DNA of 64,000 nt from contig JBDREH010000036.1 of assembly GCA_043819945.1 (NCBI GenBank), positions 82-64,081 of the forward strand. The letters are read 5' to 3'. Below are positions 35,383 to 42,679 of the stretch, one piece after another. Position numbers and translations under genes: made by a program. Numbering within the stretch: the stretch's first letter is position 1; every line of letters begins with the position of its first letter. The notes under the pieces were generated by a model. It ran no database searches. It was not told where the DNA came from and saw nothing but the letters and a program-made list of their open reading frames with translations. This DNA comes from Bacillota bacterium. Lineage in GTDB: Bacteria > Bacillota_I > Bacilli_A > Acholeplasmatales > Acholeplasmataceae.

Positions 35383-36555
35383 ATGTCATATCTACTATTA
35401 AGGGTTAATGAACTTAAAGCAGATGGTGTTTATCGCAAGTTGCCAATTAATGATGGTCCTTGTGATGCCGTAATCAAGCTTAACGGAAAACCAGTTATCA
35501 ACCTTTCGTCCAATAATTATTTAGGATTTGCAAATCATCCTAGAATCAAAAAAGCTGCAAAGGACGCAATCGATAAATTTGGTGTCGGATCCGGTGCAGT
35601 GCGCACGATTGTGGGGAATATGACGATTCATGAAGAACTTGATCGTTTAATAGCACGCTTTAAACATGAAGATGCTGCTGTAGTGTTTCAATCGGGATTC
35701 GCAACTAATGCAGGAGTGATTCAAGCAATAACCGATGAGCATGACTTGATTGTCTCAGATGAGCTGAATCACGCTTCAATTATCGATGGAATCAGGTTAT
35801 CTAAGGCTAGCAGAGCCGTATATAAGCATAGCGACATGGCAAGTCTCGAGACTGTATTAAAAGAAAGAAGAGAACATTATCACAATGTATTAATCATTAC
35901 TGACGGTGTTTTTTCGATGGATGGTGATATTGCAAAATTACCTGAAATTGTTAAATTAGCTAAAAAATATAAAGCATTGACGTATGTTGACGATGCACAT
36001 GGATCAGGTGTTCTTGGTCGTTCAGGCAGAGGCACTGTCGACCACTTTGGTCTCCACGGACAGGTCGACTTCATCGTAGGAACTTTGTCCAAGGCTATTG
36101 GTGTTGTTGGTGGTTATGTATGTGGATCTTTAGCCATGCGTGACTGGTTATTGCACAGAGGAAGACCATTATTGTTTTCAACAGCCATGATGCCTTCTGC
36201 AGTTGCAGCCATTATTGAAGCATTTCACATGCTTGAAGAATCTACAGATTATACCGACAGATTATGGGATAATGCTCGTTATTTCAAAAAAAAATTGGTT
36301 GAACATGGATTTGACATTGGTCAAAGTGAAACACCCATCACACCTATCATGATTGGCGATGAAAGTACAACGATGGAGTTTTCTAAGAATTTGCTTAAAT
36401 ATGGCGTGTTCGTCTCAGCCATTGTTTTCCCCACTGTACCCAAGGGTAAGGGAAGAATTCGTTGCATGGTATCAGCATTACATTCCAAAGAGCAATTGGA
36501 TAAAGCAGTTGAGATTATTTACAAGACTGCAAAGAAAATGGAATTAATTGCCTAG
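35383..36555 (+). CDS. kbl: Glycine C-acetyltransferase (2-amino-3-ketobutyrate CoA ligase)
   Basis: [39 protein letters not shown]. Confidence 0.92.
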
Positions 36556-36574
36556 TTAAGACTAGGCTTTTTTT
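36550..36574 (+). terminator. Intrinsic terminator
   Basis: gcctagt-taag-actaggc-ttttttt overlapping kbl stop. Confidence 0.8.
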
Positions 36575-36671
36575 CTATTTGAAAATATGAAAAGAATATC
36601 CTTAAAATAATGCTTTCAAAAACAATTTTATTTTATGGTAAGATTATTGTAGATATTGACATTAGAGGTAA

Positions 36672-38699
36672 ATGATGGGCGAAAACCAACATTTGAATGA
36701 AAATGTAAATCTCATATATAATTTGGGTCCCTTTCTTGTTGATTCAAAGCATGCACATAATAGCTATCTCATTCAATATGATAAACTAAATATACTTATT
36801 GATTTAACACCTATTCAGGTTTTTCCTCAACAAAAATCGGCAATTCAAAAAATTGTTGATTTTTCACAGCTCACATACATTATTATCCAAAATATTACCA
36901 TGTCAAGTATGGACGTTATCTTGCAACTCATTGAAGATGGATTTAAAGGGACTATTATCACTAACGTTTATTTTGCGCGACAAATTGTGAGTTTTAATCT
37001 CCCACTCAAAATTGAATTAATTGAGGAACTAAAGTATCAATTAATTAAGCAAAATCAAATTATTTTCAAATTTATTCCTATGGTTTTTTTACCTTATCCG
37101 GAAATGTTCATGACTTATATGCCTTCCTATTTCGCATTATTTTCATCAACACTTTTTAGTAGTTATTTTGACAAGGATACCTATCCAAGTATAGATCATC
37201 TCCAAAGATCAATATATGCGTATCATAAATATACAATGCCTAGTAGCCTATATATTCAACCCCCTCTGAAATTGCTACAGAAGCTTGATATTCATCACAT
37301 TTATCCAGGAATGGGCTATTTGATTTCAAAACAAATATTTAGTGCTATTTATGATTTCGAACAAAAGCTCGATTTTTATAATAATTATCAGGTTTTTACT
37401 TACGATGCAGAAGGTGAGAAATGCATCAATTACAGAGAAATCATCAATCACATGCTCAATCATCTTCAAAAATATTTTTCAAAAATTGAGATTCTAAATA
37501 CCTTCATAGGAACATCCTTTAATCTTCAACCAGATCCTTTGATGCTAATAAAGTCTTCTGTTGATGAATATAAACTTTGGCATGGTTTTTTCGAACATAT
37601 TTATGTGACAAAAGGATTACCTTGGATTACTATCTTAGAACCCTTAGTGAATCGATATTTTGAGAGTTATGGTGTAGCAAAACCAAACGTCTATATGTCA
37701 AAATTTATTGAAATGACTATGAAAGCTGAATCTCTACAAAAATTAAAGACTGAATTAGAAGAGCACATTGAACAGTTGAATGCTGAGATTGAAGATACAA
37801 AAGATCAATTTATGCGTTGCCCAATTACGCATTTGTATAATCAGGATTTCTTTAAACATTTACTTAAGATGGATTTAAACAAGCCTAAAGTAGAAGGCTT
37901 TACCAAAGGATTTTTACTGATACAAATTGATCAATTGACCGATCTTAACCGTCGCTACGGAAAAGAAACCGGAGATGAATCTTTAAGAAATTTAGCATAC
38001 CAAATACAACAGGTCAAACAACCTGACGCCTTGCTTTTTAAGCAAAATGGACCTGGTATCTTGATCTATCATGAGAAAGTTATATCACAAGGCATAGAAG
38101 ATTGTGCAGTTGCTGTCAGAAATGCAATCAATGAGTCAAATTTGTTTATTGAAAAGATTTCAACTTCAATTAGTACAGTTGATTTAGAGGAAATAAATCC
38201 AAAATTAGAAGTAGATGAACAAATAAGAGAAATCTTTAGACTGCTTGATCAACGTAATATAATAGCCAAAAGCAAAGGAATGGGTCTCATTATCGATCAT
38301 AAGACAAATTTACCCATATCTCAAGAAGGTATTGTGTTGCTAGTTGATGAAGATGAGGTCAATCTCAATATGTTAAATCGTATTTTCAAACGCATTCATT
38401 TTGATGTCAAAATAGCAAGGGGCGTCGAAGAAGCACTTGAGATTATTGATGAGGTTTTAATCGATGTCATCATTTCAGAGATTAATTTGTCTAAGATTGA
38501 TGGATTTACTTTAAAGCGTATGTTGAATGAGAGCAAGGATCATCAAAAAATACCATTCATTATGGTTTCGCATAATAAAACTCTCGAAAATATTAAAAGA
38601 GGTAACTCACTCAATGTCAATCTAATGCTGGAAAAACCAATTATTCCAGACGAATTGATCGGGCACGTTAAGCGCTATAAAACATGGGTACATCAATGA
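36672..38699 (+). CDS. Multidomain signalling protein: degenerate MBL-fold (ODP/flavodiiron-like), coiled coil, degenerate GGDEF, atypical receiver
   Basis: NSYLI...LID / FKFIP..FLPYP.MFMTY...LFSS MBL pattern; CPITHLYN...IDQL..LN.RYGKETGDE.L GGDEF scaffold with NGPGI at the signature; REC domain with IISE instead of IISD. Confidence 0.75.
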   Translation: MMGENQHLNENVNLIYNLGPFLVDSKHAHNSYLIQYDKLNILIDLTPIQVFPQQKSAIQKIVDFSQLTYIIIQNITMSSMDVILQLIEDGFKGTIITNVYFARQIVSFNLPLKIELIEELKYQLIKQNQIIFKFIPMVFLPYPEMFMTYMPSYFALFSSTLFSSYFDKDTYPSIDHLQRSIYAYHKYTMPSSLYIQPPLKLLQKLDIHHIYPGMGYLISKQIFSAIYDFEQKLDFYNNYQVFTYDAEGEKCINYREIINHMLNHLQKYFSKIEILNTFIGTSFNLQPDPLMLIKSSVDEYKLWHGFFEHIYVTKGLPWITILEPLVNRYFESYGVAKPNVYMSKFIEMTMKAESLQKLKTELEEHIEQLNAEIEDTKDQFMRCPITHLYNQDFFKHLLKMDLNKPKVEGFTKGFLLIQIDQLTDLNRRYGKETGDESLRNLAYQIQQVKQPDALLFKQNGPGILIYHEKVISQGIEDCAVAVRNAINESNLFIEKISTSISTVDLEEINPKLEVDEQIREIFRLLDQRNIIAKSKGMGLIIDHKTNLPISQEGIVLLVDEDEVNLNMLNRIFKRIHFDVKIARGVEEALEIIDEVLIDVIISEINLSKIDGFTLKRMLNESKDHQKIPFIMVSHNKTLENIKRGNSLNVNLMLEKPIIPDELIGHVKRYKTWVHQ

Positions 38700-41542
38700 T
38701 TACCATCGATTTCGCATGGATGATCTTTTATGGATTTGTCGCTATTACGGTGATTTTATTAGTTGCTATTGCAATTCAAAAGCGCATTAATTTTCGTGTT
38801 CTACGCTTAAAGGGACAGGCAAGAGATTACTTATTTAAGAAATACTTTGACCATGAGCAAACAGAAACTGGTTTGACCAGTCAGTTCTTTTTTGATGCCT
38901 ATATCGATATTGAAACACATGTAGAAATTGAACCTGAAGTCAGAAAGAAAGTAATTGAGGATCTAAGTTCAACGAAATTTGCACGAAAACAAATGCGAAG
39001 ATTGAATTCATGTAGTGTTATCAGAAGAAAGATCGCTATTTTTTATGTGAGCACCTTAGCTACGGATCGATCTTGGGCATTGCTGAATATGCGATTAAAT
39101 AAAGAAAGAAATGATAGTGTTCGCTTTTACTTAATCTATTCGATGATGAGCATCATCAATCCTGATATATTTGATAGAATAGTAAATAGTTTGATTGGTT
39201 CACACCCTAACTATCAAAGATGGATTCAAGCATTATTAAAAAATCATTACTCAAGTATTCAGACTTTTATACCTAACTATTATTCTGACCATCGTCCTGA
39301 AGTAATTAAGCTGCTGATTGCTTTAGCAGGAAATACATTTGACGAAGGTTTAAAAGAATACGCAATTAGAATTTTTCATGAATCAGTGTTAGATCTAGAC
39401 ATCAAATTGCTTGCAATAGAAGCGATTGCTAAAATGAATCCTCAAGAAATCGCAAACGATATCTTTTGCAAAAATGAAAATGATGCAATCAAGCGTGTAT
39501 CAATCCGTGCAGCTTCATCAATTGTCTCACAAGAAATGGTGGAGAATCTTGTTCAATCCATGGATGGATCACCATTAGATTTAGATCGCATCAATAGCCT
39601 GTCTAGAATAGTATATGAATCTACAGATTTACTCCTTTATGTACTTGAGTGGTATGATAGCACAAAAAATAGAAATCAACAATTAGCTATCGCTCATGTT
39701 TTATCGCATCGAATTGATTATTTGATGCTTAAAATTGATACTGAGGGGTATGAGCATATCATTGATATTTTAGAAGATATGCTAAATCTGCATATTATTG
39801 AGGATTTCATCGATTTTGTCAATGTCAACAAGAATTTGCCTATAGAAAATAAATTAGTTCCGCTCATTAGAAGTTGTGTTGCCAAGGATAAGTATCTTCT
39901 TGAAGAATTTTCTATATATTTAAAGGAAGATAAGCTAAAAAAAATAGGTATACCTAAGCTTAAGCAACCCGTTATCCCTCGAGATCCATCCCCTTTGGAA
40001 CGGTCAAAAATAATTTGGATTTCATCATGGATAGCCTTTGCTATTCTCGTGTTTCCATTGATATTTTTTATCACTCGATTTAAGATAATATTTAGTGGAA
40101 CAGTCAATGTTTTTGAATACTTAATCATAAGCATTAATAACTATCTTGTGATTTATTTTCTAGCAGCAAACCTTGTTTACCTGATTTTACTACTCATTTC
40201 AGTCAAAGGTTCTAAAGAACGACTTGATTTATGGAAGATTAAAAATCAGACCCTATTATTCGAACACGATGTGCTACCCAGCATTTCAATTGTTGCTCCA
40301 GCATATAATGAAGAAATTAGCATCATTGAAAGTGTTACATCCTTACTCAATTTGAAGTATCCTGTCTATGAAGTTATCGTTGTCAATGATGGATCGAAAG
40401 ATGATACCATCAATGTTTTAATCAAACACTTTAATCTTGAAAGAAAGCATCCATTCTTTAAGTTGAAACTTAAAACAAAAGCACTTCGAGGTGTTTATAT
40501 TAATAAAAACATCCCAAACTTGATTGTTATCGATAAGCAAAACGGGGGAAAAGCAGATGCTTTGAATCTTGGAATTAATGTAGCCAAAAATAACTATATT
40601 TGTGGGATAGATGCAGATTCATTACTTGAAGAAGATGCGCTTCTCAAACTCATGAGCATTACTTTGGATCATACAGTAGATCACATCGCATTAGGTGGGA
40701 ACATCGTTCCTGTTAATGGATGCATTGTTGATAAAGGAAAGATTGAACATAGTGGTTTAGGTAAAAACCAATTGGTTAGATTTCAAACCCTAGAGTATTT
40801 AAGAGCTTTTACAACTGGACGTATCGGTTGGTCAACAATCCATAGTCTTTTAATTATTTCAGGAGCATTTGGCTTATTTCAACGCAAAGCACTCCTTGAG
40901 ACAGGTGGTTATCTAACCATCAGTGGTGATTTAAAAAAAGACACAGTTGGGGAAGACATGGAGTTAGTCGTCAGATTAACTTATGAAGCTTTAAAAAAGA
41001 AGAATCCGTATAGAGTTGAATATGTTCATCATGCAAACTGCTTTACTGAACTTCCAAATGATTTACGTAGTCTTATGAAACAAAGAAACAGATGGCAAAG
41101 AGGCTTACTTGACATCTTGAGCTACCACCGCAAACTATTATTCAATCCCAGATATAAACAACCAGGAATGATTAGCTTTCCCTATTTTTTCATTTTTGAA
41201 ATGGTTGGTCCATTTCTAGAAATCATAGGCTATATCGCTTTAGTCATCGGATTATCATTTGGATTGTTAAACACTCCATTTGTCATTGTACTATTTGTTG
41301 CTACTATTGGATTTGGAATGGTTATCTCCCTATTTTCACTCTGGATTGCCGAAAAAAAGAATGTCTTTTATTCAAATAAAGAAACTGGTATACTAGTACT
41401 AACAGCTATTCTCGAAAACTTTGGATATAGACAATTAATGAGTTTGCAGCGTGTTTTCTCAACTTTTTCAGCTCTTAAAGAGAGTGGCTCTTGGGGAAGT
41501 CAAAAACGTCAAGGATTTATAAAAAATAATATTGAGGTATAA
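38696..41542 (+). CDS. HEAT-like repeat / processive GT2 glycosyltransferase fusion (PgaC/IcaA-like catalytic domain)
   Basis: N-terminal TM and long helical region; PAYNEE, VNDGSKD, GGKADALN, IDADS, EDMEL, QRNRW; C-terminal TMs. ATGA overlap with upstream stop. Confidence 0.85.
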   Translation: MITIDFAWMIFYGFVAITVILLVAIAIQKRINFRVLRLKGQARDYLFKKYFDHEQTETGLTSQFFFDAYIDIETHVEIEPEVRKKVIEDLSSTKFARKQMRRLNSCSVIRRKIAIFYVSTLATDRSWALLNMRLNKERNDSVRFYLIYSMMSIINPDIFDRIVNSLIGSHPNYQRWIQALLKNHYSSIQTFIPNYYSDHRPEVIKLLIALAGNTFDEGLKEYAIRIFHESVLDLDIKLLAIEAIAKMNPQEIANDIFCKNENDAIKRVSIRAASSIVSQEMVENLVQSMDGSPLDLDRINSLSRIVYESTDLLLYVLEWYDSTKNRNQQLAIAHVLSHRIDYLMLKIDTEGYEHIIDILEDMLNLHIIEDFIDFVNVNKNLPIENKLVPLIRSCVAKDKYLLEEFSIYLKEDKLKKIGIPKLKQPVIPRDPSPLERSKIIWISSWIAFAILVFPLIFFITRFKIIFSGTVNVFEYLIISINNYLVIYFLAANLVYLILLLISVKGSKERLDLWKIKNQTLLFEHDVLPSISIVAPAYNEEISIIESVTSLLNLKYPVYEVIVVNDGSKDDTINVLIKHFNLERKHPFFKLKLKTKALRGVYINKNIPNLIVIDKQNGGKADALNLGINVAKNNYICGIDADSLLEEDALLKLMSITLDHTVDHIALGGNIVPVNGCIVDKGKIEHSGLGKNQLVRFQTLEYLRAFTTGRIGWSTIHSLLIISGAFGLFQRKALLETGGYLTISGDLKKDTVGEDMELVVRLTYEALKKKNPYRVEYVHHANCFTELPNDLRSLMKQRNRWQRGLLDILSYHRKLLFNPRYKQPGMISFPYFFIFEMVGPFLEIIGYIALVIGLSFGLLNTPFVIVLFVATIGFGMVISLFSLWIAEKKNVFYSNKETGILVLTAILENFGYRQLMSLQRVFSTFSALKESGSWGSQKRQGFIKNNIEV

Positions 41543-41543
41543 A

Positions 41544-42449
41544 ATGAAAACGATTGATCAACTAAAAGTTCTATTTGAATCCTTTCATGAAGCGATTTAT
41601 ATAGTAGATAAAGAAAGAAAAATTCTCTATTTCAACCCAATTGCCTCGTTAATCAGTGGCTATAGCAAGGATGAAATGGTGAACTCTTTCTGTTTTGATC
41701 ATCGGCTAAACCACATAGATGATGAAGGAAACAAATTATGTCAAGCTGGTTGCCCACTTATTGAAAGTATAGCTGCAAACAAGGTTAGCGAGAATTTTAT
41801 TTTTCTTCATCATAAGAATGGGCATCGTGTTAGAGTTCATGTTAAAGCCATACCTTATGAGGAAAATGGTGAAGTCGTTGGAGCTATTGAAGTCTTCACA
41901 GATGTCACTGAAAAAAACTTATTACTTGAAGAAATAATGATTCAAAAGAGATTGACAATGTTAGACCCTTTAACTGGTCTTTTCAATCGTCGTTTCTTAA
42001 ATGAAGAATTTCCTAATATTGCAAAAGGTATTCATAAGGATGATAAGTTAGGTATCTTATTTATTGATATCGACGAGTTTAAACAAAAAAATGATCGCTT
42101 CGGACATTTGATTGGTGATGAGATTCTTAAAACAATTTCAAAAACAATTCAATATAATCTAAAGGCTAACGATTTTGTTATTCGATATGGCGGTGACGAG
42201 ATTTTAGTATTGCTTAGAAATATTGACCAGGAAAATGTTGAATTTATGGCAGAAAAATTAAGAATACTCGTTAAAAATTCAGGTTCAAGAGATTTAGATG
42301 AGCAGATCAAGATAACCATATCTGTTGGAGCTACCATCTTAGCTAGCAATGAAAGTCTTTTACAAGCCATCAATAGAGCAGATCATGCAATGTATCTTGC
42401 AAAAAGTCAAGGAAATAACCAAGTTGTTTTTATTGGTAAAGAATACTAA
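41544..42449 (+). CDS. PAS-domain diguanylate cyclase
   Basis: PAS N-terminus; DPLTGLFNRR, DIDEFK..ND.FGH.IGD, RYGGDE, ISVG, RADHAMY.AK. Confidence 0.92.
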   Translation: MKTIDQLKVLFESFHEAIYIVDKERKILYFNPIASLISGYSKDEMVNSFCFDHRLNHIDDEGNKLCQAGCPLIESIAANKVSENFIFLHHKNGHRVRVHVKAIPYEENGEVVGAIEVFTDVTEKNLLLEEIMIQKRLTMLDPLTGLFNRRFLNEEFPNIAKGIHKDDKLGILFIDIDEFKQKNDRFGHLIGDEILKTISKTIQYNLKANDFVIRYGGDEILVLLRNIDQENVEFMAEKLRILVKNSGSRDLDEQIKITISVGATILASNESLLQAINRADHAMYLAKSQGNNQVVFIGKEY

Positions 42450-42654: not shown

Positions 42655-42679
42655 AAAGGGCTGCGCCCTTTTCTTTTTT
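42655..42679 (+). terminator. Intrinsic terminator upstream of rlmD promoter
   Basis: aaagggc-tgc-gcccttt then T run; TGtTATAAT follows at about 42682-42690. Confidence 0.7.

Follow-up and report, generated by a model that had tools for sequence, protein, structure and literature searches.

The DNA considered here, called the window throughout, is a stretch of 64,000 nucleotides from an Acholeplasmataceae genome (GenBank assembly GCA_043819945.1, contig JBDREH010000036.1, positions 82 to 64,081 of the forward strand). It contains an operon whose first gene encodes P0001, a putative regulator in which an ODP domain, a GGDEF domain, and a receiver domain have each lost the residues of their active sites. 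The second gene, which overlaps the first, encodes P0002, a membrane-embedded polysaccharide synthase. The parts of this gene pair are listed below.

36672..38699, + strand: open reading frame of the regulator gene P0001 (675 aa; ODP-like domain, middle domain, coiled coil, degenerate GGDEF domain, pseudo-receiver)
36756..37367, + strand: ODP-like metallo-beta-lactamase fold (aa 29-232) with the six di-iron ligand positions replaced (Pfam, alignment to 6qrq, Foldseek)
36888..36911, + strand: QNITMSSM replacing the ODP ligand motif H-x-D-x-D (position checked by translation)
37368..37691, + strand: middle alpha/beta domain (aa 233-340), without a Pfam family and conserved throughout the regulator family (alignments, model)
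37692..37820, + strand: long helix (aa 344-381 in the model) ahead of the degenerate GGDEF domain (AlphaFold2 model; Foldseek matches to coiled-coil-GGDEF structures)
37821..38291, + strand: degenerate GGDEF domain (aa 384-540), fold retained, signature NGPGI, no RxxD (Pfam, TIGR00254, Foldseek, alignments)
38046..38060, + strand: NGPGI replacing GG[D/E]EF (position checked by translation)
38331..38675, + strand: pseudo-receiver (aa 554-668); phospho-acceptor position occupied by Glu603; Ser633 and Lys655-Pro656 retained (Pfam, PleD alignment)
38463-38480, + strand: DVIISE around the receiver acceptor (position checked by translation)
38478..38480, + strand: GAG codon of Glu603, the phospho-acceptor position (PleD alignment, translation)
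38684..41542, + strand: partner synthase P0002 (952 aa), whose in-frame ATG at 38696 overlaps the regulator stop codon (ATGA)

The regulator frame opens with two adjacent ATG codons (window 36672-36677), and a GAGG ribosome-binding site at 36665-36668 leaves a gap of 3 nt before the first codon and of 6 nt before the second. This spacing, together with a database entry of 674 aa for P0001, points to the second ATG (36675) as the likely true start.

The protein predicted from this frame is soluble and matches three Pfam families above their gathering cut-offs: ODP (PF19583, aa 29-212, 58.4 bits against a cut-off of 27.2), GGDEF (PF00990, aa 384-494, 51.3 bits against 23.8), and Response_reg (PF00072, aa 555-666, 61.2 bits against 30.2). 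The NCBIfam GGDEF model TIGR00254 spans aa 381-537, and the cyclase fold is therefore complete. Between the ODP and GGDEF domains, an AlphaFold2 model built on 36 homologues (mean pLDDT 86) contains an additional alpha/beta domain (approximately aa 233-340), followed by a helix of 38 residues (aa 344-381) that is likely to serve as a dimeric coiled-coil stalk. In Foldseek comparisons, scored by the TM-score normalised to the target (TMt), the model matches the ODP structures 6qwo, 6qrq, and 6r9n at TMt 0.70-0.78 and also flavodiiron proteins; many GGDEF domains are matched at TMt of about 0.8, as are coiled-coil-GGDEF structures. Because it matches ODP and flavodiiron structures, the N-terminus is a true ODP-type metallo-beta-lactamase fold, which agrees with an earlier annotation of this locus made from its letters alone (the sequence-only reading).

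Each of the three domains has nonetheless lost its signature. When P0001 is aligned with the ODP structure 6qrq, the segments YTHQDPD, FLHSTG, LFSGD, and APQHG of the latter correspond to IQNITMS, FLPYPE, LFSST, and YPGMG, and all six di-iron ligand positions are occupied by non-ligands (N74, T76, S78, P141, T160, and M214). The sequence-only reading had placed the lost site correctly at QNITMSSM, but the motif that it quoted as the intact form, H-x-x-x-D-H, has to be amended: ODP domains carry H-x-D-x-D, and flavodiiron proteins H-x-E-x-D-H. It had also read NGPGI in the GGDEF signature and Glu at the acceptor position of the receiver (DVIISE), and alignments confirm both. NGPGI falls opposite the GGEEF/GGDEF of DgcR and DosC, while the RKSD of the DgcR I-site falls opposite QPDA, and the RxxD I-site five residues before the signature is thus absent. 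Retained in the Acholeplasma clade are D420, N426, and D435, the residues with which active cyclases contact Mg2+ and guanine. The receiver aligns along its whole length with PleD and CheY-type receivers, the acceptor Asp of PleD corresponding to Glu603, its Thr to Ser633, and its Lys to Lys655. Because Glu occupies the acceptor position, phosphotransfer to this domain is not expected, and a histidine-kinase partner was set aside for that reason. The domain fits the published definition of a pseudo-receiver (PsR), as it lacks a residue needed for phosphotransfer and has Glu at the D position (PMC12632262). Histidine kinases and seven receivers besides that of P0001 are encoded in the same genome (G000).

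About 80 homologues share the three-domain layout of P0001 at 36-65% identity, and those that are named derive from Acholeplasmataceae or 'Tenericutes' assemblies. In a 36-sequence alignment of this Acholeplasma clade, 53 columns are invariant, including GPG460-462, I601-S-E-I-N-L606, K608, D610-G-F612, S633, and K655-P656; the acceptor Glu is found in 36/36 members. By mean majority frequency, the pseudo-receiver is the most conserved domain of the clade (0.76) and the ODP-like domain the least conserved of the folded ones (0.49), in contrast to the family at large, where ODP is the most conserved domain. About 48 of the sampled genomes retain a full-length regulator frame, at identities down to 36%. 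Judged from these sequences, the regulator is a conserved protein under selection and not a wreck. Copies with in-frame stop codons also occur, affecting the regulator in two Acholeplasmatales genomes (G022, contig C39; G263, contig C22) and the synthase in three (G014, contig C4; G045, contig C10; G205, contig C2), where decaying modules or assembly errors are both possible.

The family extends well beyond this clade. A profile of the first 345 residues, searched against 1.84 billion representatives, returned 101 clusters at E < 1e-30, most of whose members are 650-700 aa long, and a scan of the genome collection gave at least 568 family loci. The best 79 of these at least 568 loci include Clostridia (Acetobacterium, Clostridium grantii, Anaerobium acetethylicum, Syntrophomonadaceae, Oscillospiraceae, and Lachnospiraceae), Negativicutes, Fibrobacterota, and Spirochaetota (Sphaerochaeta, Treponemataceae, and Rectinemataceae). 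In distant members the motifs HHQDPD, YLH, SGD, and PQHG are all intact. Homologues with an intact iron site include those of Acetobacterium malicum DSM 4132 and Clostridium grantii DSM 8605. Among 89 distinct full-length regulators, the iron-ligand positions read H/D/D/H/D/H in 72-74, and the members without ligands belong almost entirely to the Acholeplasma clade. The two other domains are degenerate across the same set: none of the 89 has an intact GG[DE]EF, and the acceptor position holds Glu in 88 and Ala in one. The Ser633 position is preserved in 88/89 and the Lys/Arg655 position in 87/89. The Mg2+ pocket has no conserved second acidic residue in the family (E/T/S/D/P at that position); the chemistry of phosphotransfer has thus been abandoned, and the Glu-Ser-Lys trio retained.

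The order of these losses follows from a 107-sequence tree, in which iron-site states were taken from the aligned motif table. The window protein lies inside a 25-member clade (support 99), every member of which is ligand-less by that table. The sister of this clade (support 98) is L087, encoded on a contig of 4297 bases from a Bacilli assembly, and it is intermediate in character: Acholeplasma-type KQNGPGL, IDEDE, and IISEIN are combined with the four ligand motifs SHPDVD, FLH, SGD, and PQHG. Both the dead cyclase and the Glu pseudo-receiver date back to the ancestor of the family, because they are found family-wide and also in L087, where the ligands are intact. On the aligned sequences, the iron site was lost afterwards, at the root of the Acholeplasma clade, and this loss is specific to it. 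The sequence-only reading had noted all three domains as degenerate and, as the wider family indicates, missed that two of them were already dead in the ancestor of a large family, most members of which have an intact di-iron sensor at the N-terminus.

ODP domains also serve as N-terminal sensors of proteins with intact outputs. Among representative proteins from other organisms (P0191-P0217), ODP precedes GGDEF, PAS-GGDEF(-EAL), histidine kinase, and hybrid kinase modules; P0191 and P0196 carry GGEEF, and P0191 also RxxD. ODP is therefore a general signalling input domain, and by their sequences these proteins likely form a broad, uncharacterised class of O2/Fe-responsive signalling proteins. 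With an N-terminal ODP sensor, a linker, and a GGDEF domain, they resemble the likely ancestor of the P0001 family, which was plausibly an ODP-GGDEF cyclase. They differ from P0001 in having intact enzyme outputs and no C-terminal pseudo-receiver, and they were not found paired with the synthase. One further match, L097 from a Nitrospirae metagenome-assembled genome, covers only query residues 12-346 (the ODP part), and its architecture is different.

The partner of P0001 is a glycosyltransferase family 2 (GT2) enzyme with D, DxD, and QxxRW motifs. P0002 begins with an N-terminal transmembrane helix followed by basic residues, continues through an all-helical alpha-solenoid of about 350 aa (aa 66-421) and two transmembrane helices, and contains in its C-terminal half a GT-A domain (aa 530-790) with QxxRW, behind which lies a C-terminal transmembrane bundle. 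Its best NCBIfam match is PgaC/IcaA, at 116 bits against an equivalog cut-off of 422. In the AlphaFold2 model (pLDDT 88, pTM 0.85) the solenoid is predicted on the cytoplasmic side. The nearest solved folds are those of hyaluronan, cellulose, and chitin synthases, and P0002 is therefore interpreted as a processive synthase that translocates its polymer and extends a large arm into the cytoplasm.

Regulator and synthase are strictly paired. Of 301 Acholeplasmatales genomes, 48 match the regulator N-terminal profile strongly, 49 the synthase N-domain, and 47 both; in those 47 the two genes are always adjacent and on the same strand, and the unpaired cases are contig ends or stop-containing pseudogene remnants. 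Both genes are also present in a cultured species, Paracholeplasma vituli. Across phyla, a gene for an alpha-solenoid and GT2 synthase of about 950 aa lies directly after the regulator, on the same strand, in 71/71 informative loci, defined as those with at least ~3 kb of DNA downstream of the regulator. The downstream synthases are 30-57% identical to P0002 in the catalytic domain (mostly ~50-55%) and ~18-27% identical in the N-domain. A search with the synthase profile, aimed at distant alpha-solenoid-GT2 synthases that have partners of another kind, gave back Acholeplasma-type proteins only. With the ATGA overlap, these counts substantiate the tie to the glycosyltransferase that had been suggested from the sequence of the window.

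The remaining features of the operon and its borders are as follows.

36550..36567, + strand: terminator-like hairpin with a T-run, closing the upstream tdh-kbl genes (sequence)
36579..36608, + strand: promoter-like site TTGAAA-18-TAAAAT before the operon (consensus match only)
41532..42449, likely start ATG 41544, + strand: PAS-GGDEF diguanylate cyclase P0003 (Pfam; sub-clade only)
42655..42671, + strand: terminator-like hairpin behind the operon (sequence)

The GGDEF domain of P0003 scores 136 bits and has the signature GGDEI. Behind the synthase, the window has P0003 itself, and an orthologue occupies this place in L001/L002 (two records of a single protein) and in 9/20 further Acholeplasmatales loci; it is lacking in 11 of those 20, and none occurs among the loci with an intact iron site. 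This distribution in the sequences marks the cyclase as a late, sub-clade-specific third gene and not as a core partner. The earlier proposal that P0001 is an inert adaptor linking the downstream cyclase to the glycosyltransferase thus stands in part: the domains do lack catalytic and ligand residues and the link to the synthase is tight, but the role of an adaptor for the cyclase is not supported, as that gene is limited to a sub-clade. Throughout P0003 and its orthologues the signature has the form GG[D/E]E[I/L/M], not ending in F, and the I-site position reads KxxD. The PAS domain contains an invariant Cys/His cluster, F-C-[FY]-D-N-x-L-N-H ... C-x3-G-C-P-L, plus LHH..GHRV, as compared in window 41544-42449 and in the orthologues of L099-L105, L118, and L001. 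These residues may constitute a metal, iron-sulfur (Fe-S), or redox site. Genome G000, the 1.58 Mb genome of a wall-less bacterium, encodes 11 GGDEF domains, 4 EAL domains, 8 receivers, and several histidine kinases, and no PilZ domain was found in it despite the GGDEF and EAL complement. In two other loci the module is followed by a protein of 413-416 aa without a Pfam match (L001 13832-15073; L018 11920-13170), which is absent from the window.

We favour, with moderate confidence, the interpretation that P0001, soluble and without catalytic activity, is a partner of the membrane synthase encoded by the overlapping gene and most likely its regulatory subunit, that it acts by direct contact, and that it takes no part in O2 or Fe sensing. 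P0001, probably dimeric through its long helix, would bind the cytoplasmic solenoid of the synthase and control or support polymerisation. In most lineages, the di-iron centre would presumably respond to O2 or Fe(II), and this input would be relayed to the synthase by protein-protein contact, with neither cyclic di-GMP (c-di-GMP) synthesis nor phosphorylation involved. Glu603, Ser633, and Lys655 would hold the receiver in an active-like state. Glu is known to mimic a phosphorylated acceptor and is the replacement most often seen at that position in pseudo-receivers; an active-like Glu is documented both for pseudo-receivers and for D-to-E response-regulator mutants (PMC12632262). Together with the near-invariance of the Glu603, Ser633, and Lys/Arg655 positions, this precedent makes the earlier suggestion of a locked-on mimic plausible. 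As the iron site has been lost in the Acholeplasma clade, this genome included, P0001 would no longer sense O2 or Fe through its ODP domain; it would probably be a constitutive, 'on-like' subunit, and control would move to gene expression or to other inputs.

Applied to the family as a whole, the idea becomes distinctly more tentative. The family may possibly represent a messenger- and phosphorylation-free switch, in which a di-iron O2/Fe(II) sensor directly gates a processive exopolysaccharide synthase, a fossil GGDEF domain and a Glu-locked pseudo-receiver relay the signal to the solenoid, and the Acholeplasma clade is sensor-dead. The sub-clade of the window may in turn have been rewired to a new input through the recruited PAS-GGDEF cyclase with its PAS Cys/His cluster. 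If such a switch exists, it could tie the production of slime or capsule in anaerobes directly to oxygen or iron, and pseudo-receivers and pseudo-cyclases would gain a concrete, testable role. The family has no I-site, cyclase motif, or phospho-acceptor, yet it is tied to one synthase across at least three phyla, mostly of anaerobes. The Acholeplasma version would provide a natural loss-of-sensor control in wall-less bacteria, where surface polysaccharides are poorly understood.

Several observations weigh against the interpretation of P0001 as a contact-dependent subunit free of messenger and sensing. Pairwise distances of each regulator domain were correlated with those of the synthase N-domain, with the catalytic domain controlled for. 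Kimura distances with Pearson correlation rank the pseudo-receiver first (partial r 0.72), whereas p-distances with Spearman correlation rank ODP first (0.60 vs 0.54), also among the members with an intact iron site alone, so that the candidate docking domain depends on the distance method. The retention of D420, N426, and D435 and the invariant GPG of the clade are compatible with a nucleotide ligand. A genome with 11 GGDEF and 4 EAL domains, no PilZ, and a cyclase gene in the operon makes a c-di-GMP link possible in the sub-clade. These last points are shared with an alternative close to the earlier adaptor model, in which the degenerate GGDEF domain of P0001 binds c-di-GMP (or GTP) non-canonically and relays the signal of the operon's PAS-GGDEF cyclase to the synthase, as in PelD, BcsE, PssE, and YdaK. 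Degenerate GGDEF receptors are an established route of synthase activation (PMC7439463), and in the window and 9/20 further Acholeplasmatales loci a cyclase gene is positioned directly behind the synthase. However, c-di-GMP reception by the usual route is not supported, as an in-register RxxD I-site is present in 0/36 clade members and 0/89 family members, and a K-x-x-D shifted by one residue in only 12/36. The cyclase is missing from 11/20 Acholeplasmatales loci and from every locus with an intact iron site, and many members of the family are without the residues that contact guanine (Acetobacterium, for instance, has IEYL/EVEE). Such a receptor is accordingly judged unlikely, if the most serious of the alternatives. 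A canonical c-di-GMP receptor was also considered as the principal interpretation and rejected, with no RxxD in register and, at +/-1 residue, a non-conserved K-x-x-D in 12/36.

A remodelled ODP-like pocket, or the middle domain, could instead bind another small molecule or metal and still switch the synthase. The ODP fold is retained, P141, P190, P212, and G215 are invariant in the clade, His185 is found in 32/36 members, and the deepest members, P0085 and P0086, retain scattered His/Asp residues. Against this, the former ligand positions vary within the clade (74 as N/H/Y/S/G/Q, 76 as T/H/N/D/M, and 214 as M/Y/F), the ODP-like domain is the least conserved of the folded domains, and its pocket contains no conserved polar residue in the clade alignment. 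The free variation at these positions fits relaxed constraint on a disused pocket, and a surviving sensor is regarded as improbable. The loss of all three active sites and the stop-containing copies in G022 and G263 might further suggest a decaying relic without a function of its own, maintained solely by translational coupling to the synthase gene; full-length frames in about 48 sampled genomes at identities down to 36%, the 53 invariant columns, and a very strongly conserved receiver leave this explanation hardly any credit.

Dead-domain regulators of synthase-dependent exopolysaccharides are known, namely PelD and BcsE, and to our knowledge every characterised one reads c-di-GMP through an I-site. 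P0001 belongs to this known kind, as a pseudo-enzyme and pseudo-receiver regulator of a synthase-dependent polysaccharide system; what is new here is that the iron site of the family has been lost as well. It shares with the I-site receptors PelD, BcsE, PssE, and YdaK the gene context of an exopolysaccharide synthase but not the RxxD I-site. By analogy, its nearest functional counterpart is BcsE of E. coli-type cellulose secretion, likewise a soluble three-part regulator of a synthase system assembled from dead modules (an N-domain, a receiver, and a GGDEF domain; PMC7439463), although the likeness is one of domain class only. BcsE binds c-di-GMP via the conserved I-site residues R415 and D418 (PMC7439463), whereas P0001 has no RxxD. 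The domain order also differs (N-terminal domain, degenerate receiver, degenerate GGDEF in BcsE; ODP-like, degenerate GGDEF, pseudo-receiver in P0001), and the N-domain of BcsE, unlike that of P0001, is not an ODP/metallo-beta-lactamase fold. BcsE works through BcsRQ/BcsF, while the presumed partner of P0001 is the alpha-solenoid fused to the synthase.

The N-domain of P0001 shares its fold and Pfam family with the ODP proteins of Treponema denticola and Thermotoga maritima (6qrq, 6qwo, and 6r9n; PMC7666581), and the ligand motifs of these proteins are intact in nearly all of the regulator family outside the Acholeplasma clade. ODP in those organisms is a single-domain O2 sensor for chemotaxis that feeds a chemoreceptor (PMC7666581); P0001 differs in lacking the six ligands and in being fused to a degenerate GGDEF domain and a pseudo-receiver. 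Comparable Asp-to-Glu replacements, with Ser/Thr and Lys retained and with phosphorylation-independent function, are found in plant pseudo-response regulators (PRRs), fungal Rim15p, and bacterial PsRs (PMC12632262). Those are unrelated proteins with unrelated outputs, and none has a known link to a polysaccharide synthase. The searched literature yielded no description of the architecture or of the regulator-synthase gene pair, and ODP is unmentioned in a census review of c-di-GMP sensory domains.

P0002, for its part, resembles PgaCD/IcaAD, BcsA, and the hyaluronan synthases in being a processive GT2 enzyme embedded in the membrane and in carrying D, DxD, and QxxRW. It differs from them in its 350-aa cytoplasmic alpha-solenoid, in the absence of a PilZ domain, and in having no PgaD-/IcaD-like or export gene nearby. 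In its cytoplasmic C-terminal tail (window 41450-41542), which is not a PilZ domain, R923, W937, R942, and G944 are invariant across phyla, with the consensus W-G-x3-R-K-G-F.

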